DNA from: an uncultured Monoglobus sp.
GTDB lineage: Bacteria > Bacillota > Clostridia > Monoglobales > Monoglobaceae
Assembly: GCA_947624775.1 (NCBI GenBank)
Contig: CANQLT010000001.1
Coordinates: 2,184-66,183 of the forward strand
Length of the DNA stretch: 64,000 nucleotides
Direction: 5' to 3'
Part shown: piece after piece, positions 40,878 through 64,000 of the stretch
Position numbering within the stretch: position 1 is the stretch's first letter
How the letters are laid out: each line of letters opens with the position of its first letter
Translations under genes and position numbers: made by a program
Notes under the pieces: generated by a model
The model's input: the letters and a program-made list of their open reading frames with translations, nothing else
Told to the model about the DNA's origin: nothing
Databases searched by the model: none

Positions 40878-40886
40878 AATTTAACC

Positions 40887-41558: not shown

Positions 41559-41608
41559 TATTTTCCCACCCTTTTCTTATAATTTAATATGTAAAATTTA
41601 TTTTTTTC

Positions 41609-47454: not shown

Positions 47455-50400
47455 TCAATTGACTTTTCCTGTTTCTAAATCTGCGATTAATTTTTTGCCT
47501 CGCTCGATCAGCTCATCCGTAGTCAAATAATTATAGTATACAAAATTGTGTCCGTCCGCGGTGTATCCGTCGCACAAGATCTTCTTATCGTTCTTCATGA
47601 AGTATTCGTAGGAGTCATTTACAACGAATTTTAATTGCATACTGTCAAAGTCAAATATATTCAGTTTACTTACGTCTTTCACAAAGAAAGAGCTGTCATC
47701 CGCGAACTCGCAGTCAGTATAAGAAGCAACAACAAGTTCCGTATTCAAACGCATAACCTCTTCAAGCGTAGCAACCGAATATTTTATTAACTCACCATTC
47801 GCGCACATCGCCAATATGTATTTCGAATCCGGAGAAAACTTTATTTTACTCGGCACCGCCTCATCTCTCGGAATCACAATTCTTGAAATATTCTCATCAC
47901 CGGCTTTATATATTCCTATATATCCCTCATTTCCCTCTTTGCCGAGAAAAGCGATCAGATCGCCATCCGATGAGTTTATCAAGGATGTCACCTTTCCGTC
48001 TTCATAAACAAAATCGCTATTATTGTCCTGCACGCACGGTATATTATTATCGCCTAATTTAAAATATCTTATTTTGTGTCCGGCATTTTCGCTTGTGGTA
48101 AACGTTATAAATTCGTTTGATACGCTGTAGTCATATATATAATCATATGATCGCTCTCTACGGTACATTATGCTGCGTATATCCGTGCCGTTGGACAAAT
48201 TTATATAAAGTATGCCGTCCTGCGTACAAAACAGTATAGAGTCGCCGACCGGAAATATATCCGCCCTTTCAAAATATAAAAACTCTTTGGCGAGAATATT
48301 ATTAAGTTCTCTGAATCTCTGTTTCAAATCAATTTTTTCGCACAAATTTCCATTGTAATCAAATATTTCCGCTTTCCCGTTATCGTCAACAACAAACAGT
48401 TTATCGCCGACAAACGCCATATTTGATACGTCCATATCAATTTCTTTGTATGCAAGCAGCGTATCGCTGTTTACATCGTAAATAATAATATAATCCTTTC
48501 TTTCCTTATTATTCAACTCAAACACATCTTGATAGTGATATTTATATGCGGCAAATACGCCTTTTCCGTTGTCCGAAAACTTATCAAAGACACCCGTTTC
48601 GGTCGGCATATTATTTAGCCTGACAGAGTTATTAAATGAAATCTTTTGGTACAGCTTTATCTCCGAAGAGTCTCTCGAGGCAATGGCAAAATCACTTTCG
48701 TTAGCATGGGCCATATATTCTATTTCTTCATCAAAAGTATAATATCTATCCGCGAAAAGCAATGAATCCTTATTATATCTGGTTTCACCCTCGTAATAAC
48801 GCATCAACATGTATGTTCCAAATACTTTTCTTCCTCCGATCTGCACGGTGTTTTTTTCATTCGGCTTGCAATATATTACTTGATTGTCGTAATCCGTTGC
48901 CGTTTGAAAGTATTTCTCGCCGCTCTGCCTGTCAAATGCCAATATATTTGTTCCACTTATAACGATAACGCCGTTTCTGGGATTAAATACACCATTATCA
49001 TCAGGGACATTATGCGTCAGTTCAAAAACACAATTATACATATACGCTGATAAATAGTTCCCCTCATATTTAGTTTTCCACTTTACGGACATGTCATTTT
49101 TAGCAAAACAAACGAGTTCAGCGTTATACGATGATAAGATATCCTCACTTCTTATTCGTAAATTTAAAAACACACATTCCTCGCTCTCTCCTATAGCCAA
49201 AACCTCGTCATAATCTTCAGTGGGTAAATCAAACCACTGCCAATTGTTTTCGCTCGAATTGAGAACCCCTATTTTGCCGTCTTTGATATCGGTCACATAT
49301 ACGCGCCCGCCGCGATCCATATATGTTTTATCATCAATTCCACATTTATAATTGTTGTTTTCTTCGGAAGCGCTATTTATAACAGCGCCGTCTTTACCTA
49401 TAAGCCGATAAGTCGAATATGATGTTATTAATATCTTATCGGTTTTTTCGTTCATTTCAATATCGTCAAACGAAATACTTTCGCTATCATATCTCCAATT
49501 CAAATCACCGCTTTGCAAATCAATCGAGACCAGCACTCCGTTTGACAGCACATAACCTGTATTTTTGTCAACACAAATGTCCCTTGCGGAAGTGTCTTGC
49601 GATTGGTCAAACAATTCATTCGGAGAATATGTTTTTATAATTTGAGCGGTCGCGTAATCAATAATATATACATTGCCGGTCGAATCTCCGGCAAGAATAT
49701 GCGCGCCATCCTCGGCAAATTCCAAAAAATTAACATATCCGGACAAGTTAACAGTTTTGCGAAACATCTTATTATCCGAACTGTACGCGCCTATGGATTC
49801 GATCAACACTCTTTCGGCAAGCGGATTTTGGGGTATATCATCGTCATTATCGTTTGGAAGAGCCTCGATCGCTGTCTGTATAGCGGAAGTTATATCATCA
49901 TTTTTGTAATAAGTTTCCGACTGGTTAGCAAGTATTTCCGAGTTTTTTATCCTTACGGTTCTATTCGCCTCATTTGCCAAAGCCTCATTTTCCAACGCGG
50001 TTTGCATATTGGCCTCGGCTATCTCTTTCTGCTTGTTTGCCTCATCCATATTGGCTTCGGCAATTTCTCTTTGTCGAGTAGCCTCCTCAAGATTTGCCTC
50101 CGCGGCTTGCCGCTGAATATTCGCCTCCGCATAATTATTATTTGCTTCCTCGGTTTTTTGGGCCAGATCGGCGTTGCTTTTCGTCAGCGCCGTATTGGCG
50201 CTGTCCAGATCACCGTTAGCTTTTTGCAGCTGCTCGTTACTTTGGTCGAGCTGCGTGTTGGTTTGCTGCAGCTTGCTGTTGGTTTGCTGCAAGGCGTTAT
50301 TGGCGCTGTCCAGATCCGTATTACTCTTTGTCAGCGCCAAGTTCGCGCTGTCAAGTTTGTTGTTTGTTTCGGTCAGAGAGATGTTCGCGCTGTCCAATTG

Positions 50401-51228
50401 AGTATTTGTATCTTCGAGCTTGGTATTTGTTTCATCCAGCTCTTTATTTGTCTTGTCCAATTCTTTATTTGTTGATTCAAGATTGGAATTGCTTGTATTC
50501 AATTCTTCCGTCCTGAGCCGGAGTTCTTCGTTTTTGGCCTGCAATTCATTTCTTTGCTCGCTGATCTGCATAAGCATAATGCTGCTGTATATCATAAAAA
50601 GCGACATAAGAAGGAATGCGGCGACAACGGCAAATGTTATTTTTCTGACTTTGCGTCTATGATTTCTGTTAAATAAATCATCATATCCGCATCCCAATAA
50701 CGGCGCAACAATACGCAAGAACTCATTGTTTAATTTTTTAAGCGTCTGCTTTTGTGTGCCCGAAACAATATTCGCGGCTAAAGGTTCAACCCACTTTTCC
50801 TCACGCACAACAGAGCCGTCAGGCAGCACACGCGTTTCTATCGTGGTGCAAAGCTCTTTTGGGAAAACCTCATCCGGCTCACCTTCCGCCAGAAGGGTTA
50901 TTATATTTTCGGTCGTGCCGTTATGCAGCTTCTTAAATTGCGTGATTTCTTCAAGACACCATCTTGATTTCGCTGTGTCTTTTGAACAAATAACAATAAG
51001 ATACTCTGAATTGGCGAGCGCGCTTTTTATATCTTCGCTTAAATCGCTGCTTGACGGAAGCTCGGTTTCATCTCTGAAAACCTTCCATTTTTCCTTTGAG
51101 TTTCGCATTCCCTTTGGCGCCTTGTAAGTCTCAAGCATTTTCTGAAGTTTTTGGGCAATCTTTTTATCAAGCTCCGTATGTCGGTAACTTATAAACGCCT
51201 TATATGAATATTCTTTCATCGCAAACAC
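47455..51228 (-). CDS. TIR-domain membrane protein (TIR / TM / heptad coiled coil / beta-propeller-like ectodomain)
   Basis: YKAFISYRH...LIVICSKDTAKSRWCLEEI TIR motifs, TM at aa ~198-220, 16 NxxLxxx heptads, then ~800 aa of beta-rich repeats. Start is GTG 51228 or ATG 51219. Confidence 0.8.
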   Translation of the reverse strand: MFAMKEYSYKAFISYRHTELDKKIAQKLQKMLETYKAPKGMRNSKEKWKVFRDETELPSSSDLSEDIKSALANSEYLIVICSKDTAKSRWCLEEITQFKKLHNGTTENIITLLAEGEPDEVFPKELCTTIETRVLPDGSVVREEKWVEPLAANIVSGTQKQTLKKLNNEFLRIVAPLLGCGYDDLFNRNHRRKVRKITFAVVAAFLLMSLFMIYSSIMLMQISEQRNELQAKNEELRLRTEELNTSNSNLESTNKELDKTNKELDETNTKLEDTNTQLDSANISLTETNNKLDSANLALTKSNTDLDSANNALQQTNSKLQQTNTQLDQSNEQLQKANGDLDSANTALTKSNADLAQKTEEANNNYAEANIQRQAAEANLEEATRQREIAEANMDEANKQKEIAEANMQTALENEALANEANRTVRIKNSEILANQSETYYKNDDITSAIQTAIEALPNDNDDDIPQNPLAERVLIESIGAYSSDNKMFRKTVNLSGYVNFLEFAEDGAHILAGDSTGNVYIIDYATAQIIKTYSPNELFDQSQDTSARDICVDKNTGYVLSNGVLVSIDLQSGDLNWRYDSESISFDDIEMNEKTDKILITSYSTYRLIGKDGAVINSASEENNNYKCGIDDKTYMDRGGRVYVTDIKDGKIGVLNSSENNWQWFDLPTEDYDEVLAIGESEECVFLNLRIRSEDILSSYNAELVCFAKNDMSVKWKTKYEGNYLSAYMYNCVFELTHNVPDDNGVFNPRNGVIVISGTNILAFDRQSGEKYFQTATDYDNQVIYCKPNEKNTVQIGGRKVFGTYMLMRYYEGETRYNKDSLLFADRYYTFDEEIEYMAHANESDFAIASRDSSEIKLYQKISFNNSVRLNNMPTETGVFDKFSDNGKGVFAAYKYHYQDVFELNNKERKDYIIIYDVNSDTLLAYKEIDMDVSNMAFVGDKLFVVDDNGKAEIFDYNGNLCEKIDLKQRFRELNNILAKEFLYFERADIFPVGDSILFCTQDGILYINLSNGTDIRSIMYRRERSYDYIYDYSVSNEFITFTTSENAGHKIRYFKLGDNNIPCVQDNNSDFVYEDGKVTSLINSSDGDLIAFLGKEGNEGYIGIYKAGDENISRIVIPRDEAVPSKIKFSPDSKYILAMCANGELIKYSVATLEEVMRLNTELVVASYTDCEFADDSSFFVKDVSKLNIFDFDSMQLKFVVNDSYEYFMKNDKKILCDGYTADGHNFVYYNYLTTDELIERGKKLIADLETGKVN
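50164..50490. repeat. 21-bp periodic coding repeat (16 consecutive N-x-x-L-x-x-x heptads)
   Basis: Asn at aa 247, 254 ... 352 and Leu at aa 250, 257 ... 355 of the TIR protein, with no phase break. Confidence 0.85.
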
Positions 51229-51239
51229 ACCCGCCTTAG

Positions 51240-51614
51240 CTAATCAATTACATTTAATATATTTATAAAACCGGTACTTTCAAAAACATCACGGATCTCG
51301 CTGTTAATATTGGTGATTTCCATATCTTTGCTGTTATCAATATCGTCAATATATTGCTGAGCGGTCAGGAGCGCCCTGAGTCCCGCGCTTGCCATATATG
51401 CCACATCGGAAAAATCCAGGATCAATTTGTCGGAATTATGCAGCTGCTCCATTAAATTTTTTGAAAAAGCCTCAGCGACATTTGTCTTTATCGGCCCCGA
51501 TAACACCAAAATTCTTTTGTCATTATCCATATTTACAGTTATTTTAAGCAAAATCGAGTTATCTTCATCGTTAATAATATCGGTTACGTTTTTATTTAAA
51601 ACAGTTTTAATCAT
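51240..51614 (-). CDS. STAS-domain anti-sigma-factor antagonist (SpoIIAA/RsbV-like)
   Basis: LILDFSDVAYMASAGLRALL carries the phosphorylatable Ser context. ATG 51614 overlaps the upstream stop (ATGATTAA). Confidence 0.8.
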   Translation of the reverse strand: MIKTVLNKNVTDIINDEDNSILLKITVNMDNDKRILVLSGPIKTNVAEAFSKNLMEQLHNSDKLILDFSDVAYMASAGLRALLTAQQYIDDIDNSKDMEITNINSEIRDVFESTGFINILNVID

Positions 51615-52047
51615 ATATTTCAAGTCCTTTCCTTTTTGTATCGGAGAAATTTTTAATTAATTTCAATTTATTGCTGTTATTTTTGTATTCATAAAGCATT
51701 TCGTCAGTCTTTGAACGGGAGATAAATATACCGAGACCTCCCGGTTTTCTTTTACTGCGCGGCGCCCGAATATCCGGCGGATCAATTTCAAGCGGATTAA
51801 ATTTTTTGCCCTTGTCCGTAAAACCGACCGTCACCATGTTATCCTCAACGTTCATTTCAATTTTTACATTCCCGATATCAGGCGCGTAAGCATAATTTGA
51901 AATGTTAATAAATATTTCTTCGAGCGCGACAAGAAACGAAATGATCTCGCTATGTTCAAAGCCGTGATCCGTTAACTCGTTAAATATTATATCATATATT
52001 TTGTCCCACTCATCAAGCGTCGCTCGCCCCGTCCAATGCACTTTCAA
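51607..52047 (-). CDS. Anti-sigma regulatory factor / Ser-protein kinase (RsbW/SpoIIAB-like, HATPase_c)
   Basis: N-box ALEEIFINISNYAY and G-box PGGLGIFI. 146 aa. Start is TTG 52047 or GTG 52041. Confidence 0.75.
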   Translation of the reverse strand: MKVHWTGRATLDEWDKIYDIIFNELTDHGFEHSEIISFLVALEEIFINISNYAYAPDIGNVKIEMNVEDNMVTVGFTDKGKKFNPLEIDPPDIRAPRSKRKPGGLGIFISRSKTDEMLYEYKNNSNKLKLIKNFSDTKRKGLEIYD

Positions 52048-52196
52048 ATCTCCTTATACATTTTAATTTTCAAATGTTAATACACAACTGTCTTGATTAT
52101 GTTACAACATTATTATTAATAATGCAAATCGTGTAACAAAACACGCGGATATGTGTATAATCATGTGAAAAAATATAACGAACACGGAGTGATCTG

Positions 52197-53594
52197 ATGT
52201 TACAGCAAAATTTTCAGAATAAAAATCCATATATTATTAATTTATTGAATAAAAACTCTCTGTTTCTGGCAGAAAGCATTTGTCGCGCGGATAAAAACGC
52301 CTGTATAATTATTGCGGGCGATATTGATCCGGCAGATTCGAAACAAGTTACTGACGCGCAAAACTCAGGCTATCTTGTCACCTCGGAGTCAGTGTTGACC
52401 GTGGCTTTAAAAAATTTAAGATCCTCTAAAAAGGTTCGATTTGTTCTGATGCACCCCGAAGAGGAAATCAACCTTGATCAGGCGCTTAAATTGACAAATA
52501 TGCTGCGCGGAAAAATGTACGCTGAAATATATACTGTCAACACGTCAAAAGTATCGGAATGTCTGATCGACAGCATTGATAAGGGTTCTCCCGACAGCGA
52601 AGTTCCGCCCATAAAACTTCGTAGAGTAAACCTGGTCCGCAATCAGGTTTATCTTGACATTCTGAATAACTCTATTTTCGAAAATCCGGTTTTAGAATAC
52701 AATGAAAAAATTATATGCGTGCTCATTGCCGGTCTGGGACAATACGGTATGGAAATGCTCAAAGCCATTCTTTGGTGCGCTCAAATGGACGGGTATGTGC
52801 TGAGGGCGCACATCATTGACAAAAATCCGGATATAGAATCTGTTTTTTATCGGCACTGTCCCGGAATCCGACAGCGCGGCACGCAGCCCAAAAGCGGCGA
52901 AGATTATTACGAGCTGAATTTCCACGGAGGAATTGATGTAAACTCCATAGATTTTGATGACTGCGTCAGATCTATCGCCTCGGTTTCTTTGGCGTTTGTA
53001 GCTTTGGGCAACGAAAATATTAACCTTGAAACGGCGATCAGGCTTCGCTCTCTGTTTTCCGGGATAAAGATTGACAATGGGGAGATGCCGGAACACTCGC
53101 GGGAAACCAAGCAAAATCCGCGAATTTTGACTGTTATACAACATCCCGAAAAGGCATCGTTGATAAAAGAAAACCGACTTTCAAATTTCAAAAACGAGTA
53201 TTATCAGCTTGATTGTATAGGGTCGGCGTCCGATATGTTTTCATACGAGAACATATTCATGCCTCAATTGGAAGCTATGGCTCTCAAGTCGCATCTTCAA
53301 TTGGGCTCGGAAACGGACTTCAACAACTACGAATATAACAGACGCTCGTCTATGGCAAGTGTGATACACAAAAAATACAGAGATATGCTGATGCCGGATA
53401 ACGAGACCAAAGATATAGTTGAACACAGGCGCTGGAACGCTTATATGCGGGGAACCGAGGGATATTCTTTCGGATTTATAAGAGACGATCTGGCGCTCCG
53501 ACATCCGCTTTTGGTAAAATACGATAACCTCGGCCGAGTAGAAAAGGACAAGGACCTTAACATGAACTCCGACAATATTTCCACGATTTTCTGA
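52197..53594 (+). CDS. RyR-domain protein with Rossmann-like N-terminal modules
   Basis: C-terminus EHRRWNAYMRGTEGYSFG...RHPLLVKYDNL...EKDKD resembles the bacterial RyR domain. VLIAGLGQYGME is a glycine-rich loop. GGAG RBS. Confidence 0.55.
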   Translation: MLQQNFQNKNPYIINLLNKNSLFLAESICRADKNACIIIAGDIDPADSKQVTDAQNSGYLVTSESVLTVALKNLRSSKKVRFVLMHPEEEINLDQALKLTNMLRGKMYAEIYTVNTSKVSECLIDSIDKGSPDSEVPPIKLRRVNLVRNQVYLDILNNSIFENPVLEYNEKIICVLIAGLGQYGMEMLKAILWCAQMDGYVLRAHIIDKNPDIESVFYRHCPGIRQRGTQPKSGEDYYELNFHGGIDVNSIDFDDCVRSIASVSLAFVALGNENINLETAIRLRSLFSGIKIDNGEMPEHSRETKQNPRILTVIQHPEKASLIKENRLSNFKNEYYQLDCIGSASDMFSYENIFMPQLEAMALKSHLQLGSETDFNNYEYNRRSSMASVIHKKYRDMLMPDNETKDIVEHRRWNAYMRGTEGYSFGFIRDDLALRHPLLVKYDNLGRVEKDKDLNMNSDNISTIF

Positions 53595-53607: not shown

Positions 53608-53638
53608 AGGCGGTCATATTACAAATGACCGCCTTTTA
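53608..53638 (+). terminator. Rho-independent terminator after the RyR-domain gene
   Basis: aggcggtcat / atgaccgcct 10-bp stem followed by TTTT. Confidence 0.55.
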
Positions 53639-54523
53639 TTATTTGTATTTCAGCGCCAGCAATGTGATGTCATCGTCTTGGCCGGCGTGATCCATAAACG
53701 CTATGACCTGTCTGCGTATGTACGCCGTCAGCTCTCGCATATTATGGCTGCCGTCCATGTAGGCCCTTATTACTTCGGCCAATCGGTCTGACCCGAACAG
53801 CTCATCAAAACGGTTGTGCGCCTCGGTCACGCCGTCGGTATACAAAACAAGCGCATCGCCCTTATCCAGCTTTAAATCAAATCCTTTGTATTCCATAAAT
53901 CTTTTTTTTGAGAAATATGACGCCAAAGGAATGCCGGATGTATGCTTAACAAACTCAGCCATTCCGTCCGCTTTGAGCAAAATCGGATAATTGTGCCCGG
54001 CGTTGACGCAGCGCATAACGCCTGTTTCCACATCAAATACGGCGCTCCAGGATGTAATGAATCTCTTCTGCATAGTGGACAAGCAAAGCTGCTTATTCAC
54101 CGCGTTATATGCCGTCTCTATGTCCTCGCCGGACTGCATACGCAGCTTTAACATTGATTTTGTTATCGCCATATACATCGCCGCCGGTATACCTTTTCCC
54201 TCTATATCCGATATTCCGAAATATATGTGGGATTCGTCGATTTTAAAATAGTCATAAAAATCCCCGCCAACCTCACATGCGGAATCCATATCCGCGTACA
54301 GATCAATATTCGGAAGCTCCGGGAAAGCAGGATAATCAGTCGGCAGCATACTGCGCTGAATCTGCTCCGCCACCACCTGCTCCGCTCTCATAGCCCGATT
54401 TTCTGCTATGTATTGCTCGTAAGATTTCAGTTTTTGTTTGAGAATATTATTCTCACATTTTAGAGTTTTTATTATACTGTTTTGTCTGACATTAATATTA
54501 TCACTCATTGTTTTTTCCGCCAA
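53639..54523 (-). CDS. SpoIIE/RsbU-type PP2C phosphatase
   Basis: EVGGDFYDYF, LVLYTDGVTEA and QDDDITLLAL motifs. N-terminal coiled coil. Start is ambiguous (TTG 54523 or ATG 54508). Confidence 0.85.
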   Translation of the reverse strand: MAEKTMSDNINVRQNSIIKTLKCENNILKQKLKSYEQYIAENRAMRAEQVVAEQIQRSMLPTDYPAFPELPNIDLYADMDSACEVGGDFYDYFKIDESHIYFGISDIEGKGIPAAMYMAITKSMLKLRMQSGEDIETAYNAVNKQLCLSTMQKRFITSWSAVFDVETGVMRCVNAGHNYPILLKADGMAEFVKHTSGIPLASYFSKKRFMEYKGFDLKLDKGDALVLYTDGVTEAHNRFDELFGSDRLAEVIRAYMDGSHNMRELTAYIRRQVIAFMDHAGQDDDITLLALKYK

Positions 54524-54634: not shown

Positions 54635-56203
54635 CTATTCCCACAAAACGGTCATTCCGAGCGCCTCGGCAACATATCTCAGCGGCAGGTAAGTTCTGTC
54701 GTTCATCGTCACGGCGAATGTATCCATACGCGATTCAACGCCGTTAACCTCTATCGTCCTTGAGCCTATCGTAAGCGCTATAGTCGTTCCGTCTTTGTAG
54801 ATCGTCACTCTTTGAGTGGCTTCGTTCCAGTCAACATAAGCACCCAAGAATTCGGCTAAAGCTCTGACGGGCACCACTGTTCTGTCGCTAAAATCGATAT
54901 ACGGCTGAGCATCTGTAAAATTGACTTTTTCACCGTTTACGAAAATCATCACCGTGTTTCCCACCTGAGTTACCTTAACTTCTCCTCGGCCTCCCGAACT
55001 GTATGAGCCGTTCGATCCGGCTGACGAAGAATTATTCGGTTCAGGCGTGGGAGTTGATTGCAGAACGGGTGAAACAAAAGATTTGGTTTCTCCGCAGACT
55101 TCAACTCCGTTTTCTTCCACATACATCTTGTAATAATATGTTTCACCGGGTGTTAAATATATTCCCGCATCTTTATTAAAATTATATGATGGAGTGATCA
55201 TGCTTCTTCCGTATTCAATTTTATCAGAAATAACTTTGACCATATTATCCGGAGATGTTCCAAAATACAAACCTGCCTCCGCCAGACCATTACCGGAACA
55301 AGTAACAAGACCCGCTACATAACCGTCGGTTCCTGTAAAAGCGTAAGCGTCAACGGTAACTGCCTTAAGATTTGTAGTCGGAGCTTCAGGCGCAGGCTGA
55401 GGTCCCACGGTCGTGAACGACTTTGTCTCGCCGCACACCTCCACGCCGTTTTGTATCGCGTACATCTTGTAGTAATACGTTGTGCCCGGCGACAAATATT
55501 GGTTGGCCTCGCCGTTTAAGTCGTACCACAGATTAAACGGGTTTTTGCTGAAGTTAATCGCGTCATGTGCAACCTTGCTCATATTATCGGCAGAATATCC
55601 GAAATACAATCCCGCCTCAGTTGGACGATTGCCCGAATATCCCACGGAGCCGCGCACGGTTGCGTTTGTCTCCGTAATGGTATCGGCGCCGTCCGTTGAC
55701 ACCCATATATTCGATGACGGCTGCGCGGGCGCCGATCCGCCATCCGAACCCGAAGGGGCAACGCCGCCTTGCCAGCCCCATCCAACATAAGAGTTCCACA
55801 GCCACTGAGGGATCTGCTCTTTAACAACGCCCTTTTTCGCGTTTCGCGAATCAATAATGGTATTGTTGCCGGCGTAGATTCCCACGTGACCGTATGTCGC
55901 ATCAACTTCTCCGCCTATGAAATACATACACGCGCCGACCGGTATATTGTCTCTGCTGTTTGAGACGCACCACAAATTATATGCTTCTTTCGCGCTACCC
56001 GGAGATGCCGAGGCATACAGTCCCGCATATTCATAGCACGACCTTACAAATGCCTGACACTTATTCGGGAAGGCATTTGTTCCAACCTTGCTGTTCGCGT
56101 ATTCAAGGATCATATCAACTTGAGACGCGGCCGCAACCGGCGTGATCGATATAATTGGCAGTAATAAAGCAAGCAATAATGCAAAACATATAACTCTTTT
56201 CAT
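54635..56203 (-). CDS. Secreted NlpC/P60-family cell-wall hydrolase with two Ig/Fn3-like modules and a CuAO-N stalk domain
   Basis: Signal peptide, NKCQAFVRS (Cys), YGHVGIYAG (His). C-terminus DRTVVPVRALAEFLGAYVDWNE...DRTYLPLRYVAEALG. Confidence 0.8.
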   Translation of the reverse strand: MKRVICFALLLALLLPIISITPVAAASQVDMILEYANSKVGTNAFPNKCQAFVRSCYEYAGLYASASPGSAKEAYNLWCVSNSRDNIPVGACMYFIGGEVDATYGHVGIYAGNNTIIDSRNAKKGVVKEQIPQWLWNSYVGWGWQGGVAPSGSDGGSAPAQPSSNIWVSTDGADTITETNATVRGSVGYSGNRPTEAGLYFGYSADNMSKVAHDAINFSKNPFNLWYDLNGEANQYLSPGTTYYYKMYAIQNGVEVCGETKSFTTVGPQPAPEAPTTNLKAVTVDAYAFTGTDGYVAGLVTCSGNGLAEAGLYFGTSPDNMVKVISDKIEYGRSMITPSYNFNKDAGIYLTPGETYYYKMYVEENGVEVCGETKSFVSPVLQSTPTPEPNNSSSAGSNGSYSSGGRGEVKVTQVGNTVMIFVNGEKVNFTDAQPYIDFSDRTVVPVRALAEFLGAYVDWNEATQRVTIYKDGTTIALTIGSRTIEVNGVESRMDTFAVTMNDRTYLPLRYVAEALGMTVLWE

Positions 56204-56238
56204 TTTAATAACCTCTCTGCTGTATTGTTTCGATATGA

Positions 56239-57081: not shown

Positions 57082-57354
57082 TTATATTCTATTTAACAGT
57101 ATTTTAAACCACTTATAATTCGCCAAGGTCATTGAGGGCGCGCCTCCGGAAACATCATTCAGCTGCTTGTCGCTGAGTTCCGTATCCGTATTAGCGCTCC
57201 TAATGGCTTCACGCAGTTCATCGGACGTGATCTCCACACCGTTATCCATAAACACCTTAATTGTTTCCTCGATAGACGATACGTTTTCAAGGATCTTTAA
57301 AAACGCCTCATCTTTGTCAAGCTTTCGCAATTTTTCTTCTGTTTTCTTATCCAT
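57082..57354 (-). CDS. Bacteriocin-like precursor, Nif11/TIGR03798-type leader with double-glycine site
   Basis: Leader ...GVEITSDELREAI...ELSDKQLNDVSGG | core APSMTLANYKWFKILLNRI. GGAGG RBS. Confidence 0.75.
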   Translation of the reverse strand: MDKKTEEKLRKLDKDEAFLKILENVSSIEETIKVFMDNGVEITSDELREAIRSANTDTELSDKQLNDVSGGAPSMTLANYKWFKILLNRI

Positions 57355-57388
57355 TTTAACCTCCTGTTATCCTTCGCCGAATTGTTGA

Positions 57389-57673
57389 TCAGAATAATTT
57401 AATTTTTCTGATTTTTTCTTTGGGGCTCTTCACTTTAATTCTTATGAATCTGTCTCCATCTTTGATTAATCTCCATATACTATGGAGCGGCGCGCCTCCT
57501 GTTATGTCCCCAAGTTCGCTTTCGTCAAGCTCGCTCTTGTCCAATATTTCAACATCGGCTTCGATGCCGCTTTCAGAAAGAACAGTCGCTATTTCGGCGT
57601 CGCTCAAACCGGCAATCTTTTTTATAAAAGACGGATCCGCAAGAACTGCTTCAGTTTTACTATTATTATTCAT
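57389..57673 (-). CDS. Bacteriocin-like precursor, Nif11/TIGR03798-type leader with double-glycine site
   Basis: Leader ...DPSFIKKIAGLSDAEI...ELDESELGDITGG | core APLHSIWRLIKDGDRFIRIKVKSPKEKIRKIKLF (cationic). AGGAGGTG RBS. Confidence 0.75.
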   Translation of the reverse strand: MNNNSKTEAVLADPSFIKKIAGLSDAEIATVLSESGIEADVEILDKSELDESELGDITGGAPLHSIWRLIKDGDRFIRIKVKSPKEKIRKIKLF

Positions 57674-57715
57674 TATTTCACCTCCTAAAATAAATTCACA
57701 CGCGTTTTCAATGCG

Positions 57716-57940
57716 TTACATTTTTTTCTTCCGATTTTTCAAGTATTCCGGAAGTTCAACTTCCTTAACGGCGGCTGCGGCAAAGGAAAGCTCATCCTCG
57801 GTCAATTCACCGTTTTCGGGCTCATAAGCGTTTATTATCATATCAAGCCTGTCTTCGGTTTTGTTTCCTCTAAATTTTTGTAGTTCCGCCGCTCTTTTCA
57901 GCGCCGCAATGATATTAGGATAATCTTTTAAATTAATCAT
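57716..57940 (-). CDS. Small acidic/basic protein, possibly a degenerate third precursor or accessory factor
   Basis: 74 aa with a GGAGG RBS. ELTEDELSFAAAA aligns with the ELSxxxLxxVxGG motif of its neighbours, but with AA in place of GG. Confidence 0.5.
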   Translation of the reverse strand: MINLKDYPNIIAALKRAAELQKFRGNKTEDRLDMIINAYEPENGELTEDELSFAAAAVKEVELPEYLKNRKKKM

Positions 57941-58009
57941 TTGATATATCCTCCAAATTTTAATTTCAACGACGTATACACTTATATTTAAAAAGTGTTA
58001 CAACTTTAT

Positions 58010-60553
58010 TTATGCGATTTGTCTGCTTGCTAATTTATAAAAATAACCATGTTTATTCATCAATTCGTTGTAAGTGCCTTCTTCCGCTATTCTGCCGTTA
58101 TCCAAAACAATGATTCTGTCACAGTTTATAATAGTACTCAGTCTGTGAGCTATTACAACACGAGTTGAATTTAATTTATCAAGGCTTTGACAGATCATCG
58201 ATTGGGTCACATTATCAAGAGCGCTGGTCGCCTCGTCAAAAAACAATATCTTGGGCTTTCCGACGATCGCTCTGGCAATCAATATTCTCTGCTGCTGGCC
58301 ACCCGATATTGTTCCGCTCGATTCGCTGACTATTGTGTGCAGACCCATGGGCATCGCGTCAATATCGTCTTTAAGACCTACCTCGTCAACTGTTTCAAGC
58401 ACTCTTTTTATATCTATACCCGGAGCTGTTATGGTTATATTCTCATAAATGCTTCCGGATATCAGCTTGCCGTCCTGTAAAACAACACCCAATTTCTTGC
58501 GAAGCTCGCGCTTATCAAGGCTTTCAATATCCTTTCGATCATAATATATCTTACCGTTTTGGGGCTTTTCGAATCCTAATAAAAGCTTTAGCAAGGTAGA
58601 CTTGCCACAACCGGATGCCCCCACTATTCCCACATATTCACCCTCGGATATGTGTAAAGACAGATCTTTCAAAACCGGAGCTTTTTCATCATATCCGAAT
58701 GTTATATTGCTTATTTCAATATCGCCGCTTAAATCGCCCGGTAATTCAGTATACGTCTCAAGCTCAGGCGGCACCTCAAATATCGGTCTTATGCGTTTGT
58801 AAAACGGTTTAAGGCGGCTGACATTCAGTGTGTTGTTTACAATATCAAGAAAAGCGCCCGAAAAAGCTCCAAACGCTGAAACAAACGCTATAAACGAGCC
58901 CATAGATATGTCTATACGGCTGTGTATCATAAGATAGTAAAGCACAAGCGAAAACAAACCGTTTGCAGCAACAGAAATTGTGTTTACAATAATCCCGATT
59001 TTACCGCTTTTTATATCGACTCCACATTCCTCTGTATAAGGCTTTAAATACTCGTATAACGCCCTGTCCTCCACTCCGGCAATTCTTATTTTCGATATAC
59101 CGCTTATAAACTGATATATTATCGAACCGGTTTTTCCGCTCAATTCCATGCTCCTTTTCGCGTATTTCATAGACCTTAAGGAGAAAAGCACAATTATTAC
59201 CGCATAAACCATAAGCATAATAACAGAGGCAATCGACAGCGGCTTTGAATATCCCAACATTCTCAACAGATATACAACTGAAAAAACACATGATAATCCG
59301 GACCCCAATAATATGCTCAATATGCTGCTCACAAATCCGTTTACGCTCATTACCCTTTGAGCCAGATCGCCGCTGTCGTAGTTTCTGAAAAAACATTCGG
59401 GCAAATTAAATAATCTACTGTATGCGGCACTTTGCGCATCATATTGAATACGGCTTTGTATCCTGAAAGCGCATAAACTTTTCACCACCGAAAAAGCTAT
59501 ATTGCCAACGGAACACGCGAGTATGACACAGCATACCTGAATCACTGTATCCGAAACTCCAATCGGAATATATTCATCATATAGTTTTTGATTGAGTATA
59601 GGCGTTAATAATCCTATAAGCGATCCAATCAGCGTCATAAACAACAATAGTATTAAATCATTTATCTTAATGCTTCTGAGCGCGTATGCGACGATATCTT
59701 TAAAAGTCATTTTTTTATCGCTAAACGGCCTGTATATCATATATGCCTCAGGCGACATTTTCATTGCTTTATCTTTTTTTAACACTTCACGTTTATCTGT
59801 CGCAGGGTCATAAATATAGTATTTTGAGGGCCATTTTGTTTCGCATGAATAAGGCTCTCCTGTTTCCCTGTCAAAGACAATAAGGGGCCCTGAGTCACTT
59901 TTATGCCAATCATCGGGCAACACGACCTTGCGGCAAATAAAATGCGACAGCCGCGCTATGTCCGAAACATCGGCTTTATCCCCGCAAGACTCAGCGATTC
60001 TTTCATGCGGGGCTATGTTGATATGATTTGATTTGCATAAATGCGCCACCGCATCATATAAATTATTTTTCCTTTCACTTTTATTATCAGCTTTGTTTTT
60101 CTTGTTGAACACGTCATAAATCACATTTAAACTGTTTTCATATGCCTGCTTCTGCTCCTGCCGTGTTTTATGAATAAATCCCTGTTCTTTTATAATATTA
60201 AGTTTATAATATTCCACAAGCCCGTCATTATAGCCTTCGTTTTTATAGCTGCGTAGTTTGATTTTTTTGGCAAAATTATCTTGAATGTCGGAACTAATAC
60301 TGTTTGGATTTATTTGAATCTCTGCTCTTTCCAGCGCAACAAGACAAAAAACCCATTTTTGGCCGTCAAAATCCGTATAATTGAATGACGGTATAACGTC
60401 TCCGTGAACGGCCTCGCATATAAACAAACGTCTGCCCGGTCCTTTATTCGACACAGGCGCAATGTACACAAGCACGTTGCCGTCTTTGACCGTGTATGTT
60501 TCGGAAGCGTTTTTGCTTAAATATATTTCTCCGCCGTATAAATATTTTTTCAT
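58010..60553 (-). CDS. NHLP/NHLM-type bacteriocin ABC transporter, permease/ATPase subunit without peptidase domain
   Basis: ~280-aa N-terminal extension, 6-TM ABC exporter domain, GASGCGKSTLLKLL, ISGGQQQR. Confidence 0.85.
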   Translation of the reverse strand: MKKYLYGGEIYLSKNASETYTVKDGNVLVYIAPVSNKGPGRRLFICEAVHGDVIPSFNYTDFDGQKWVFCLVALERAEIQINPNSISSDIQDNFAKKIKLRSYKNEGYNDGLVEYYKLNIIKEQGFIHKTRQEQKQAYENSLNVIYDVFNKKNKADNKSERKNNLYDAVAHLCKSNHINIAPHERIAESCGDKADVSDIARLSHFICRKVVLPDDWHKSDSGPLIVFDRETGEPYSCETKWPSKYYIYDPATDKREVLKKDKAMKMSPEAYMIYRPFSDKKMTFKDIVAYALRSIKINDLILLLFMTLIGSLIGLLTPILNQKLYDEYIPIGVSDTVIQVCCVILACSVGNIAFSVVKSLCAFRIQSRIQYDAQSAAYSRLFNLPECFFRNYDSGDLAQRVMSVNGFVSSILSILLGSGLSCVFSVVYLLRMLGYSKPLSIASVIMLMVYAVIIVLFSLRSMKYAKRSMELSGKTGSIIYQFISGISKIRIAGVEDRALYEYLKPYTEECGVDIKSGKIGIIVNTISVAANGLFSLVLYYLMIHSRIDISMGSFIAFVSAFGAFSGAFLDIVNNTLNVSRLKPFYKRIRPIFEVPPELETYTELPGDLSGDIEISNITFGYDEKAPVLKDLSLHISEGEYVGIVGASGCGKSTLLKLLLGFEKPQNGKIYYDRKDIESLDKRELRKKLGVVLQDGKLISGSIYENITITAPGIDIKRVLETVDEVGLKDDIDAMPMGLHTIVSESSGTISGGQQQRILIARAIVGKPKILFFDEATSALDNVTQSMICQSLDKLNSTRVVIAHRLSTIINCDRIIVLDNGRIAEEGTYNELMNKHGYFYKLASRQIA

Positions 60554-60567
60554 TATTTCATTATCTC

Positions 60568-62712
60568 CTAAAGATTTTTAATAAGTCTTTGATATAAGCC
60601 GTCAACCAACGCCAACTCCTCATGCGTCCCGCGCTGTTCTATTTTTCCTCTGTTCATTACCAAAATTTGATCACAGTCCCTGATTGCGCTTAAACGATGA
60701 GCCACAATAATACATGTGCAGCCTCTGCGCTTAATGTTGTCGAGTATGCGCTTTTCGACTAACGGATCAAGCGCACTGGTCGCCTCATCCATGATTAATA
60801 TTGACGGGTTTGTCGTGAGCGCGCGTGCTATTTCAAGCCTTTGCCTCTGTCCTCCGGAAAGATTCGCAGCCCCTTCGGCAAGATAAAAATCATACGCTCC
60901 GGGCTTTGCGGTTATTACATCATGAATACACGCATCTTTTGCCGCTCTTATCATGTCGGATTCAAGAACTCCTTTGTTCCACATCGTAAGATTATCTCGT
61001 ATAGTCCCGGAAAACAGCGTAATATCTTGACTGACCGTTGAAATGCTGGCGCTGATAACGCTCTTGGGGATTTTTTCCAAACTGACTCCATCCATAAGTA
61101 TCTGCCCATCCCACGGCTGATATAAGCCGCTTATCATTTTCGACACGGTTGATTTGCCGCAGCCGGAAGCTCCCACCAAAGCAATGGAGCCGCCGCTGCT
61201 GAGCTTAAACCCGAAGTTTTTTACCAGCGGATCAGATAAGCGGCTATATCCGAACGACACATTTTTGAGCTCGACATTTCCGGAAAGTTTAGTTTGAATC
61301 ATGATTTGATCCCGATTTTCAAATTTGGAGTCAAGCGGATAATTCATGATATCTTCCACTCTGCCCATATCAGCCTTTAATGTCTGTACTTTTCTGACAA
61401 TGCCGACTAATTCGGTTACGGGTTGTGTGAATGAATTAAGGAGTGTGCCAAAGGCCACAAGCATTCCTATTGTCATTTTGCCGTTGATAACAAAGATTCC
61501 GCCTATCATAAGAACAAGGATCGTTGAGATCGACCCGGATATCTGCGGAATGATATTCAGTAGATTTTGCAGTTTATTCAATTTTTGCTCGATCATAATA
61601 TTTTTCGCGTAATTACCGAGGATCCTGCTCACATACTCATTTTCCGTTCCCGAAGCCTTTAGCGTACTCGTGATACTTATCCCGGCGCATACCGTTCCCA
61701 TAGTTTTACCTTGATCCTGCTGAAGTTTCACAGTAATATCGGAAATAGTTTTTGAACTGCATTGGAGCACAATCATCTCCACAGCAACATTAACAACTCC
61801 GATACAAGTCAGTATCGGATTATAAAGCAACAGCAAAATCAAATAAAACCCGGCAACCGTTATATTAAGAATAGTTTCTGCCAAATCTCCTGCGAGAAAA
61901 GAGCTTATATTATTATTGTTCACTACTCGTCCTGACAAATCACCGGCATAACGCTGGTCAAAAAAGCCAACCGGCAGCCTGAATAAATGTGACAAAAACT
62001 TATGCGCCGAAATCAATGTCATTTTGTTTTGCAATTTCTGTAAAATAATGCTTCTATAAAACGTCAAACCGCAATTCAAAATAATAACCGACAACATTAA
62101 AATAACAAAGCTCGAAAACCACTCAACATTGCCGCCAGAAAGAATATCATCCAAAAAAAATTGCGACAGCAGCGGAAGCATCACCCCGGGAACAACAAGC
62201 AATATTCCTAAACATACTAACTTAGCAATAGCCGAATATTGCCCTTTTAAACGAGACGTAATATTCCGCAAAAACAAATTTTTCTTTTTTTCTTTTTCAA
62301 AACTCTCCGTTGCCGAAAACGTAAGAACGATACCCGTAAAACCCTCGTCAAGCTCTTCAATGGTAAGTCTGCGTCTGCCTACAGCGGGATCGTTTAAATA
62401 CGCGTAACCGTGTTTTATTCCCTCATACACAACGAAATGATTAAAATTCCAGTGTATAATGCATGGCGGATTCAATTTCATCAAGCCGTCAAGTTCTTTT
62501 CTGTAGCCGTGACATTCAAGCCCGTATTTTTTCGCGGCGCGCATTATATTGGCGGCGTTGCATCCGTCTCTTGACACCCCGGTTTCGATCCTCATTTGCT
62601 CTAAAGCAAGATTTTTGCCGAAATATGCGAATATCATTGATAAAGAAGCCGCACCGCATTCCGTTGCTTCCATTTGATAAATTGTGGGTGTTTTGATATA
62701 ATTTGATTTCAT
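60568..62712 (-). CDS. Bacteriocin ABC transporter with N-terminal C39 peptidase domain (peptidase/permease/ATPase)
   Basis: QMEATECGAASLSMIFAYFG (Cys) and HWNFNHFVV (His) C39 motifs. GASGCGKSTVSKMI, LSGGQRQR. Confidence 0.9.
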   Translation of the reverse strand: MKSNYIKTPTIYQMEATECGAASLSMIFAYFGKNLALEQMRIETGVSRDGCNAANIMRAAKKYGLECHGYRKELDGLMKLNPPCIIHWNFNHFVVYEGIKHGYAYLNDPAVGRRRLTIEELDEGFTGIVLTFSATESFEKEKKKNLFLRNITSRLKGQYSAIAKLVCLGILLVVPGVMLPLLSQFFLDDILSGGNVEWFSSFVILMLSVIILNCGLTFYRSIILQKLQNKMTLISAHKFLSHLFRLPVGFFDQRYAGDLSGRVVNNNNISSFLAGDLAETILNITVAGFYLILLLLYNPILTCIGVVNVAVEMIVLQCSSKTISDITVKLQQDQGKTMGTVCAGISITSTLKASGTENEYVSRILGNYAKNIMIEQKLNKLQNLLNIIPQISGSISTILVLMIGGIFVINGKMTIGMLVAFGTLLNSFTQPVTELVGIVRKVQTLKADMGRVEDIMNYPLDSKFENRDQIMIQTKLSGNVELKNVSFGYSRLSDPLVKNFGFKLSSGGSIALVGASGCGKSTVSKMISGLYQPWDGQILMDGVSLEKIPKSVISASISTVSQDITLFSGTIRDNLTMWNKGVLESDMIRAAKDACIHDVITAKPGAYDFYLAEGAANLSGGQRQRLEIARALTTNPSILIMDEATSALDPLVEKRILDNIKRRGCTCIIVAHRLSAIRDCDQILVMNRGKIEQRGTHEELALVDGLYQRLIKNL

Positions 62713-62715
62713 TGA

Positions 62716-63546
62716 TTAGTTCTCCGCTTCCAAAGCAGGCAATAATTTTGTGATAGGCGCACTTTCGCTTGCTATTATTTTTATATCCATTAACTCGCCT
62801 TCGCTTATCTCAAGCTGTTTTCCTCTTTCGGACGACCAACTGTATCCGTTGACTGCGCTTTCGTCTGTTTTCATTGATAACGCCACAGTTACCATCGGAT
62901 CATCGGTCGAAATATATTTCAAAAGACTTTCATTTGATCCGATTACCCGCATGGCTTCGGACCCGGTGGTTATATAATCATCCACGCTTACGACCGCCGC
63001 CTCCATATGCCCGTAGTTTTGAGCGTCAAACGACGCCGGCGTAACAATCGCTTTCATTCCGACTTGTATCTTCTTTCCGTCCTCGATCGGCAAATATGCT
63101 ATCACAATATCGTCACTTTCCACATCCGGCGTAACTCTGGCAATCAAATCATATTTATTTATTTTGTCGCCAACATTGAAATTAACCGATGTGACAGTGC
63201 CTGTTTGCGTAGAAATAATTTTCGATTCGCTCCCGCTCTCGTTTTTTATCGCGCCGATTACATCACCTTTTACAAGCTTTTTATCCAACACCAATTCGCT
63301 CTCGGTAATTTTTCCGGCATACATCGAATGTATCGGGATCGTGTCATAACCGTTTACAACAATGCCCGTAGCCGTCATGGTCGTCGGCAGGTTTCCGCTA
63401 ACAGACCAAAAAATAAAAGCCGAAATTATCACTGCGACTCCCAAAATCACCAGCCACGACAAAGGCGATGTTATTTTTATTGTTTTATCCAACTGTTCCG
63501 GCGACGAAAGTCTTTCCAGCGCTGATTTTCTAAAAATGCTTCCCAT
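62716..63546 (-). CDS. HlyD-family NHLP bacteriocin-system secretion protein
   Basis: FRKSALERLSSPEQLDK N-terminus, one TM, barrel-sandwich hybrid region. Confidence 0.8.
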   Translation of the reverse strand: MGSIFRKSALERLSSPEQLDKTIKITSPLSWLVILGVAVIISAFIFWSVSGNLPTTMTATGIVVNGYDTIPIHSMYAGKITESELVLDKKLVKGDVIGAIKNESGSESKIISTQTGTVTSVNFNVGDKINKYDLIARVTPDVESDDIVIAYLPIEDGKKIQVGMKAIVTPASFDAQNYGHMEAAVVSVDDYITTGSEAMRVIGSNESLLKYISTDDPMVTVALSMKTDESAVNGYSWSSERGKQLEISEGELMDIKIIASESAPITKLLPALEAEN

Positions 63547-64000
63547 TATATGTAATCCTCCGGTTTAATTTTTTTATTTTTAAAAAAATCAGATAATCTT
63601 TCAAGAGCTCTCTTTGAAATAATGCGCACATTTCCGGCGGTTGTATTTAAAGTGACCGCAATTTCATTGGACTTTTTGTTATAAAAATATTTTAATATTA
63701 TTACTCTTCGCTGTTTTTCGGACAAATACTCGAAAGCGTCCGCGAGAATGTCTCGAAATTCCTGAAGCAGTGCAGCTTGCAGCATCAGATCCTCGTTTTC
63801 GCCTTCTGTTATTGATTCATCATTAATATCGGAAAAAACTTTTCTGTCTCTATAATAATTTTTTAAATGGTTTTCCGTAATCCTAAAAAGCCACGTCTTG
63901 ACCGAGGCCTTTTCAGGATCATATCTATCATAATTTTTAAACGCTTTAAAAAATATATCACTCGTCAGATCCTCGGCAAGACTGTAATTATTAACTTTTT
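63546..64000 (-). CDS. Sigma-70/ECF-family sigma factor, C-terminal part (gene continues past the right edge)
   Basis: The frame is open from nt 64000: ...DLTSDIFFKAFKNYDRYD...WLFRITENHLKNYYR (region 2) ... LSEKQRRVIILKYF...EIAVTLNTTAGNVRIISKRALERL (region 4). Its stop overlaps the HlyD start (TAATG). Confidence 0.8.
   Translation of the reverse strand, partial: KVNNYSLAEDLTSDIFFKAFKNYDRYDPEKASVKTWLFRITENHLKNYYRDRKVFSDINDESITEGENEDLMLQAALLQEFRDILADAFEYLSEKQRRVIILKYFYNKKSNEIAVTLNTTAGNVRIISKRALERLSDFFKNKKIKPEDYI

Follow-up and report, generated by a model that had tools for sequence, protein, structure and literature searches.

A predicted transmembrane TIR receptor family of Clostridia and its linkage to an RyR-domain protein, a partner switch and peptide export

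The bacterial TIR proteins known to us are cytoplasmic sensors or effectors of defence systems. In Thoeris systems the pattern is a TIR gene with a variable adjacent effector, often with transmembrane (TM) helices (10.64898/2025.12.03.692087). Here we describe a gene from a 64,000-nucleotide (nt) stretch of an uncultured Monoglobus sp. (contig CANQLT010000001.1, positions 2,184 to 66,183; we call the whole stretch the window) whose product, the receptor, joins a TIR domain to a predicted TM helix and a large ectodomain. The locus resembles Thoeris in that a TIR domain with the catalytic glutamate is encoded beside a variable partner with a putative nucleotide-sensing domain, to which most clades add TM helices. 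It differs in that the TIR protein itself is predicted to be transmembrane, with a roughly 1000-amino-acid (aa) extracytoplasmic sensor, and in that the window's subclade has, as its downstream parts, a partner switch and a sigma factor in place of a toxin. The accessible parts of the main text and supplements of a 2025 TIR survey make no mention of RyR, TrkA, WD40, STAS or an RCK-RCK-RyR partner. Bacterial TM-TIR receptors, cellular TIR-RyR pairings and TIR genes in partner-switching operons were likewise absent from the searchable literature, an absence that is not proof given that most subscription journals lie outside such a search.

Animal Toll-like receptors (TLRs) are the other close comparison, and the first-pass annotation of this stretch had proposed their layout for the protein. 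The likeness holds for the single pass, the large repeat ectodomain and the cytoplasmic TIR domain, all as predicted, and related loci encode proteins of the order TIR-TM-leucine-rich repeat (LRR). It fails for the arrangement of the parts: the receptor has its TIR domain at the N terminus, would be a type II protein, lacks a signal peptide and carries propellers on a coiled-coil stalk in place of an LRR horseshoe. In sequence its TIR domain is closest to enzymatic plant and bacterial TIRs, not to the adaptor-type TIRs of TLRs, and there is no evidence for common descent of the two architectures as wholes.

Architecture and distribution of the receptor

Three Pfam models match the receptor at aa 9–121, each above its gathering score: TIR_2 (PF13676; E 3.9e-11, 43.9 bits vs cut-off 28), ThsB_TIR (PF08937; E 1.3e-10, 42.0 bits vs cut-off 21.2) and TIR (PF01582; E 7.4e-10, 39.3 bits vs cut-off 21.3). 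The TIR domain first proposed from the letters alone is thus borne out by both profiles named for checking it, PF13676 and PF01582. A 100% identical database copy (P0001, 1254 aa) starts at M4. Among solved structures, the best matches to the TIR domain in a sequence search of the Protein Data Bank are the plant NADase TIRs Roq1, RPP1 and SNC1. E94 stands four residues past the tryptophan of a W-x-x-x-E motif and falls on the WCLEEL stretch of Roq1, whose glutamate we take to be the catalytic residue of enzymatic TIRs. It is unchanged in 41/41 aligned family members, in keeping with the catalytic role first suggested for it. By this glutamate, the domain is probably of the enzymatic (NADase/cyclase) type, with predicted activity.

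Exactly one hydrophobic segment is present (scan window aa 194–223, Kyte-Doolittle maximum 2.31), it is flanked on its N side by the basic stretch RNHRRKVRK, and the hydropathy scan found no N-terminal signal sequence or other N-terminal hydrophobic segment. The receptor is therefore predicted to be a type II, single-pass protein with its N terminus inside and about 1035 aa outside. Among homologs, 113/120 share the single TM helix and the positive N flank, which agrees with the initial prediction that there is one helix and that the TIR domain is cytoplasmic. A conserved juxtamembrane module (aa 136–193) directly follows the TIR domain.

Outside the membrane, the predicted stalk contains 17 perfect xxxNxxL heptads (aa 244–362, nt 50143–50499), visible in the DNA as a 21-nt periodicity, with an EAN-rich helical segment on their C-terminal side. 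Both elements had been noted before, the heptads at about 110 aa, a length that we revise to 119 aa. If it formed one continuous helix, the stalk would be about 32 nm long and would span a Gram-positive wall. The remaining ~800 aa, first described as propeller-like repeats, resolve into two propellers in AlphaFold2 (AF2) predictions, which were made on database homolog sequences: the model of the ectodomain (aa 431–1257) is all-beta (predicted local distance difference test, pLDDT, 87.5; predicted template modelling score, pTM, 0.80), and Foldseek matches it to tandem WD40 double propellers over about 800 columns (E 1e-17 to 2e-21). Mean pairwise identity in the family is 0.58 for the TIR domain, 0.56 for the juxtamembrane module and 0.18 for the propellers, and from sequence the receptor reads as a conserved, putatively signalling end joined to a fast-evolving, putatively sensing end.

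The receptor family is large and Clostridia-specific. A word-indexed search gave at least 938 matches, all of them TIR proteins of about 900–1300 aa from Clostridia, and an exhaustive HMMER search with aa 1–225 gave 1,827 clusters (50% identity) at E<=1e-30; relatives are encoded by at least 582 species-representative genomes, and none were found among 2.9 million viral contigs. Gene neighbourhoods were studied in 80 genome loci and in others retrieved through exact protein matches; open reading frames (ORFs) were called in all of them and searched with profiles that started from proteins of the window and were iterated; 97 loci were fetched overall (cited below by L numbers) and 85 receptor loci assessed. 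In 27 of these (L017–L079) a DHH/DHHA1 phosphoesterase gene (510–530 aa) adjoins the receptor gene. In most of them it lies upstream and reads the same way; in L061 (8412–9995) it overlaps the receptor start. Most named records of this group are Lachnospiraceae, and about ten of its loci have neighbours of housekeeping appearance (one of them, judged from sequence, tRNA-synthetase-like).

The Toll-like idea is strengthened by two more distant loci in which a TIR_2-single TM-LRR protein directly follows RsbW/STAS genes like those of the window (L095 4906–6981(-), 691 aa; L097 3062–5443(+), 793 aa). The LRR assignments come from LRR_5 in L095 (E 4.7e-56) and from LRR_4 and LRR_8, both above cut-off, in L097. 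The TIR module thus appears to accept different ectodomains, and the TIR-TM-LRR proteins would hold all three TLR building blocks with the chain order reversed.

A tandem-RCK protein with an RyR domain

Divergent from the receptor operon lies a gene for a 465-aa protein, P465, which we read as a tandem-RCK (TrkA-like) protein ending in an RyR domain. Its AF2 model (pLDDT 92.5, pTM 0.92) has the tandem-RCK TrkA structure 4g65 as top Foldseek match (E 1.3e-6, 429 columns, TM-score 0.43), and the second RCK domain contains a GxGxxG-like IAGLGQYG. The single sequence scores 21.6 bits against the RyR model PF02026, below the Pfam cut-off of 27.4; when 26 family members are combined into one profile, it matches RyR R12 domains at E 2.7e-23 and 3nrt, a bacterial protein with an RyR domain, at E 3.7e-11. 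No TrkH/KtrB-type channel gene was seen in association with P465.

Four residues of the RyR domain (H410, W413, H436 and D453) are invariant in the P465 alignment. The TIR products 2'cADPR and 3'cADPR, isomers of cyclic ADP-ribose (cADPR), are reported to be bound by phage proteins with an RyR domain, one of which also cleaves them, and the phage protein RyDEP uses H75, W78, H100 and D117 on such isomers (PMC13232231, a May 2026 preprint). The P465 residues have the same spacing. P465 shares with RyDEP both the domain family (PF02026) and the H-x-x-W ... H ... D residues. It differs from the phage protein in being cellular, fused to tandem RCK domains (with TM helices in other clades) and encoded beside a TIR gene, a position that suggests a receptor or built-in terminator of the signal rather than an immune-evasion factor.

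A P465 homolog is the commonest neighbour of the receptor gene, adjoining it in 33/85 loci; across several receptor clades the partner is the RCK-RyR protein, not RsbW/STAS. The arrangement varies. In the window's subclade the two genes diverge, in Ruminococcus the P465 homolog overlaps the receptor gene on its downstream side, and in others it lies upstream and reads the same way. The association also extends to other TIR genes: L084 has a P465 homolog behind an unrelated TIR gene (341 aa), and short soluble TIR genes directly follow an RCK-RyR gene on the same strand in L001 (4595–5593(-), 332 aa) and L089 (7148–7591(-), 147 aa). In further loci a standalone RyR ORF of 87–110 aa lies directly 5' of the receptor gene (L048 9641–9961, L059 9634–9966, L042 6825–7088, L053 6614–6907), and two of these, L048 and L059, have a TM-RCK-RyR gene besides. 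Search with the RyR-domain profile for TIR-RyR fusions gave only standalone RyR proteins of ~94 aa.

P465 relatives of 590–670 aa carry one to three N-terminal TM helices, which the window's subclade lacks. These TM forms were considered as K+ channels and rejected, as the alignment shows no TVGYG-type filter. Soluble P465 and RsbW/RsbV occur together in 12/12 loci, and TM-bearing forms never occur with RsbW/RsbV. Because loss of the anchor and gain of the switch coincide perfectly, the switch may have taken the place of an output that acted at the membrane.

Partner switch, shared promoter motif and peptide export

In the window's subclade the receptor gene is preceded by genes for an RsbW-like kinase (HATPase_c_2, E 8e-15) and a STAS protein of RsbV type (E 1.6e-12), both above gathering score; RsbW equivalog models match the kinase weakly. 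All three ORFs stand as first annotated (Table 1), as does their tight packing: the STAS stop lies 11 nt (GTG) or 20 nt (ATG) from the TIR start, and the HATPase stop overlaps the STAS start within ATGATTAA. All 8 STAS orthologs compared have the serine that aligns with SpoIIAA S58, and eight RsbW orthologs keep the ATP-binding motifs (Asn box, D.G..F.P and GG(L/F)GI). A SpoIIE-type PP2C phosphatase gene, also kept in L001, L002, L005, L086 and L095, would supply the third component, and with the serine, the ATP boxes and the phosphatase all present the set has the features of an RsbU/V/W-type module. A transcript shared by PP2C and RsbW was considered and is unlikely, because the divergent P465 gene and a strong hairpin separate them.

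HATPase_c_2 and STAS genes lie immediately 5' of the receptor gene in 12/12 loci of this STAS subclade (the window, L001, L002, L004, L005, L086, L088, L089/L090, L095/L096 and L097), whose receptors are 26–56% identical. Since it is present in every subclade locus, the linkage is not fortuitous. Among the 85 receptor loci it is confined to this subclade, so that the synteny which the first-pass annotation proposed to look for stands here and most of the receptor family is without RsbW/STAS. The STAS gene is split into ORFs of 68 and 39 aa in the metagenome contig L089 (9598–9962) and intact in another contig, L090 (368–733); the receptors of the two are identical, which points to a frameshift or assembly error in L089. 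The module resembles the sigma-B and sigma-F systems (RsbU/RsbV/RsbW and SpoIIE/SpoIIAA/SpoIIAB) in its PP2C phosphatase, its STAS protein with a phosphorylatable serine and its GHKL serine kinase/anti-sigma factor, and it resembles the sigB operon in placing rsbW and rsbV behind an alternative-sigma-type promoter. It differs in lacking an adjacent group 3 sigma gene, in its W-V rather than V-W order, and in running into a TIR receptor gene.

Comparison of intergenic regions of orthologous loci yielded a motif, TGTAAC-N15-GTGTA, of which the 64 kb window has 3 exact copies vs 0.01 expected, about 25–40 nt 5' of start codons. It lies 5' of RsbW in 9/9 loci examined, with an inverted copy 5' of P465 and copies 5' of peptide genes. 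Of the 97 fetched loci, only the 12 records of the STAS subclade have it, and among these it further stands 5' of a secreted GH26/wall-binding gene in L086 and of NAD-salvage genes in L090. An AAC in the -35 element marks promoters of extracytoplasmic function (ECF) sigma factors (PMC8103513), a pattern that the motif's AAC and spacing appear to fit. Because all of them carry the motif, the RsbW-RsbV-TIR operon, P465 and the peptide genes look like one regulon, for which the cluster's ECF sigma factor is the obvious though unproven driver.

This sigma factor, the only one in the cluster, is encoded about 11 kb from RsbW/STAS, where the last 450 nt of the window hold, on the minus strand, its C-terminal two thirds. 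Orthologs are complete in L005 and L088 (the latter scoring 106 bits against TIGR02937, cut-off 42.9) and partial in L086. It heads an operon of NHLP-type HlyD, a C39-peptidase ABC exporter, a second ABC protein and small genes with double-glycine leaders. Two of the small genes, 57082–57354 and 57389–57673, have double-glycine sites, with cores APSMTLANYKWFKILLNRI and APLHSIWRLIKDGDRF..., and 57716–57940 has none; the first scores 29.7 bits against the Nif11-type leader model TIGR03798, just under the cut-off of 32.3. From these matches, 57082–63546 holds a complete NHLP/Nif11-type export set. The sigma/export/peptide block is linked to the TIR module in 7/8 subclade loci with enough flank. 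The window, L001, L002, L086 and L095 have it upstream of the module, L005 and L088 on the opposite side of the receptor. No anti-sigma gene adjoins the sigma gene, domain searches found no histidine kinase or response regulator in the cluster (44–64 kb), and an Rfam scan of 42–64 kb gave no match, hence no NAD+ or other riboswitch. The block resembles Blp/Com class II bacteriocin loci in its double-glycine leaders, C39-peptidase ABC exporter and locus-encoded regulation. It differs from them in having no histidine kinase/response regulator pair, its regulators being only the ECF sigma factor, the switch, the RyR protein and the TIR receptor.

A conserved ECF sigma gene at the window end and in L005, L086 and L088 overturns the earlier argument that, for want of a sigma factor, the TIR protein is the obvious candidate for the output of the switch. 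With an ECF-type motif common to the operon, the RyR gene and the peptide genes, it is more natural to see the sigma factor as the output and the TIR receptor as the input.

In L097 the module forms a same-strand operon of the order DUF7005, P465, RsbW, RsbV, 56-aa double-glycine-leader peptide, TIR-TM-LRR, TIR-TM-propeller, HD. The peptide ORF (2907–3077(+)), between STAS and TIR-LRR, has a double-glycine leader and a 9-residue core, IKIPAWKPE, and looks pheromone-like. A secreted double-glycine peptide as the receptor's ligand is an attractive idea that draws on linkage and nothing further (L097; no other locus regulator).

Table 1. Features of the receptor locus and its surroundings in the window
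Feature	Position	Strand	Basis or remark
TIR receptor gene	47455..51228	-	ORF; 1257 aa counted from GTG start
TIR domain, aa 9-135, predicted cytoplasmic	50824..51204	-	Pfam TIR_2, ThsB_TIR and TIR above cut-off
E94 codon, Glu of WCLEE	50947..50949	-	aligned with Roq1 WCLEEL; invariant in family alignment
TM helix, about aa 197-221, predicted N-in	50566..50640	-	hydropathy and charge bias
Coiled-coil stalk, aa 223-440, predicted extracytoplasmic	49909..50562	-	heptad repeats
Two tandem beta-propellers and C-terminal helix, aa 441-1257	47458..49908	-	AF2, Foldseek
STAS, RsbV-like anti-anti-sigma gene	51240..51623	-	Pfam; ATG at 51614 likely start
RsbW-like Ser kinase/anti-sigma gene	51607..52047	-	HATPase_c_2; GTG at 52041 likely start
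TGTAAC-N15-GTGTA, 5' of RsbW-STAS-TIR operon	52081..52106	-	exact
TGTAAC-N15-GTGTA, 5' of divergent RCK-RyR gene	52132..52157	+	exact
P465, soluble RCK-RCK-RyR, 465 aa	52197..53594	+	AF2, TrkA match, RyR family profile
RyR (R12) domain of P465, aa ~372-460	53310..53576	+	family profile
GC-rich hairpin with flanking T and A runs, between convergent P465 and PP2C ends	53608..53634	.	
PP2C (SpoIIE-type) phosphatase gene	53639..54523	-	Pfam SpoIIE, E 3.1e-40
Three small genes (57082-57354, 57389-57673, 57716-57940)	57082..57940	-	translations; homologs in L001, L002, L005
Motif copy with one mismatch, 5' of second peptide gene	57695..57720	-	
TGTAAC-N15-GTGTA, 5' of first peptide gene	57977..58002	-	exact
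Two ABC exporter genes (58010-60553; C39-peptidase exporter 60568-62712)	58010..62712	-	Pfam
NHLP bacteriocin secretion protein, HlyD type	62716..63546	-	TIGR03794, 187.9 bits vs cut-off 156.2
ECF sigma gene, 5' end beyond window	63546..64000	-	translation; orthologs L005, L086, L088

Other genes surround the module. The S8 protease and vWA genes that follow the receptor gene were considered as members of the unit and rejected: no related locus has a vWA counterpart, and S8 beside the receptor recurs solely in the closest locus, L004. From the TIR stop it is 78 nt to a GTG and about 108 nt to the likely ATG of S8, and no clear terminator lies in this interval, so that read-through into S8 stays possible. 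The TIR block is lower in GC (36–44%) than the S8 gene (51–53%), as had been pointed out before. Three secreted proteins scattered through the cluster (54635–57057(-) and 45035–47377(-) of the window) have a Cu_amine_oxidN1 wall-binding-type domain in common: one of NlpC/P60 type, one of 272 aa and the S8 protease. In related loci GH26 or S8 proteins with this domain follow the receptor gene. Near the module, genes for NAD salvage (PnuC, NadR-like, nicotinamidase, NAPRTase) and genes with Macro domains are present in L090 (12025–14284), L089 (19500–21194), L001 (13215–14303) and L088 (11571–12623), those with Macro domains in L001 and L088. At the block's low-GC edge, ~600 nt past the vWA gene, there is a tyrosine recombinase (phage integrase family) gene (42550–43623(+)), and upstream of it a Ser/Thr protein kinase gene (33300–34676) and a Cthe_2159/DUF4956/VTC-domain trio (38310–42274(-)) appear unrelated to the receptor.

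A proposed pathway, its rivals and its meaning

The best explanation of this locus, which we put forward tentatively as falling somewhat short of probable, runs from the surface receptor through a TIR-made nucleotide, an RyR sensor, the partner switch and the ECF sigma factor to peptides. A surface cue would be sensed, and ligand-driven clustering of the ectodomains would bring TIR domains together, which would then turn nicotinamide adenine dinucleotide (NAD+) into an ADP-ribose-derived nucleotide to be read by the RyR domain of the neighbouring P465. In other clades the membrane-anchored RCK-RyR protein is probably the effector itself; in the window's subclade P465 is soluble and the PP2C/RsbW/RsbV switch would have been added, relaying the signal and freeing the cluster's ECF sigma factor. 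From TGTAAC-N15-GTGTA promoters this factor would transcribe the Nif11/NHLP peptide genes, the RyR gene and, as feedback, the RsbW-RsbV-TIR operon itself. The analysis demonstrates the architecture, topology prediction, domain identities, conserved linkage and shared promoter motif from which this proposal starts, and we infer the TIR's enzymatic activity, the identity of the nucleotide, RyR binding, the RsbW-sigma pairing, the direction of the signal and the ligand. The wider proposition, that gut Clostridia have a TM TIR pathway that controls expression rather than killing, built from propeller or LRR receptors, an NAD+-derived messenger, an RyR reader, the switch, an ECF sigma factor and secreted peptides, is possible and on balance doubtful.

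Several points weigh against this pathway. The classical partners of RsbW-type anti-sigma factors are group 3 rather than ECF sigma factors, and the RsbW-ECF pairing proposed here is drawn from linkage alone. The GTGTA in the -10 part of the motif differs from the textbook CGT, and the sigma gene's own upstream region lacks the motif, leaving the recognising factor unproven. The conserved RyR residues fit a receptor and a signal-degrading enzyme alike, and Ruminococcus TM forms of P465 have N for H436. Linkage is not universal: the P465 homolog in L085 and the commonest standalone RyR protein (L091–L094) are not beside a TIR receptor gene, 27 family loci have DHH/DHHA1 instead of RCK-RyR, and many loci have neither. 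The receptor topology is a prediction from hydropathy and charge only, and for every member of the family we infer all steps beyond architecture, linkage and motif.

An anti-phage or abortive-infection system like Thoeris is an unlikely alternative with several points in its favour. The propellers would detect phage or envelope damage and the TIR domain would signal or deplete NAD+, with the RCK-RyR protein as killing effector (in its membrane form) or as a buffer of stray signal, and the switch and peptide locus as mere neighbours or as regulators of expression. The TIR catalytic glutamate and weak ThsB matches are consistent with this, as are a hypervariable sensor domain suited to an arms race, the Macro and NAD-salvage genes nearby and the integrase gene at 42550–43623. 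The locus also has a TIR gene and a variable neighbour, as in Thoeris (10.64898/2025.12.03.692087), and phage RyR proteins counteract Thoeris (PMC13232231). Against it, PADLOC matches none of P465, STAS, RsbW and PP2C and gives the receptor only weak ThsB/PDC matches (ThsB E 2.4e-4); P465 of the window lacks a killing domain, whether membrane-acting or of another kind; and in the Lachnospiraceae clade the gene lies among housekeeping-looking genes, not on an island. To our knowledge, an extracellular sensor would be unprecedented for a TIR defence system. We treat the absence of receptor relatives on viral contigs as neutral here.

A direct action of RsbW/RsbV on the receptor is improbable, with RsbW sequestering or phosphorylating the TIR domain, dephosphorylated RsbV releasing it and NADase activity as the output. 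The three genes form one tight operon in 12/12 subclade loci, RsbW and RsbV still precede the TIR gene when the ectodomain is an LRR, and partner switches with non-sigma outputs exist, all of which speak for this arrangement. However, the cluster has a conserved ECF sigma factor without an anti-sigma gene of its own, and the operon's ECF-type promoter is common to the peptide genes. RsbW/RsbV are moreover limited to the STAS subclade of the 85 loci, whereas the cytoplasmic module is ~57% identical across clades and shows no evident switch-specific surface, and a switch acting on the TIR domain would leave the RCK-RyR protein unexplained. A non-enzymatic surface or wall scaffold, whose TIR-like domain would serve interaction or oligomerisation among functionally unrelated neighbours, is very improbable, for although many animal TIR domains are adaptors, the ectodomain resembles generic WD40 scaffolds and secreted wall-binding Cu_amine_oxidN1 enzymes (S8, GH26) often follow the receptor gene, the catalytic-position glutamate is invariant, conservation is far higher in the TIR domain than in the ectodomain, linkage to a nucleotide-binding RyR-domain protein recurs whatever the arrangement, and the promoter motif is shared.

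A family of surface receptors with enzymatic-type TIR domains would mean that TIR signalling from the outside inwards was not invented by animals. If the proposed pathway is true, it would be a bacterial counterpart of receptor-to-TIR-to-transcription logic and the first cellular TIR-to-RyR-domain axis, and it would echo the proposed link from cADPR to the ryanodine receptor in animals. The pairing with an RyR domain gives a cellular context to the binding of cADPR isomers by such domains (PMC13232231) and may make the old question of cADPR and the ryanodine receptor approachable in a simple system. The motif and the ECF sigma/switch wiring yield directly testable predictions and suggest a new regulatory principle for bacteriocin or pheromone peptides in abundant rumen and gut bacteria.

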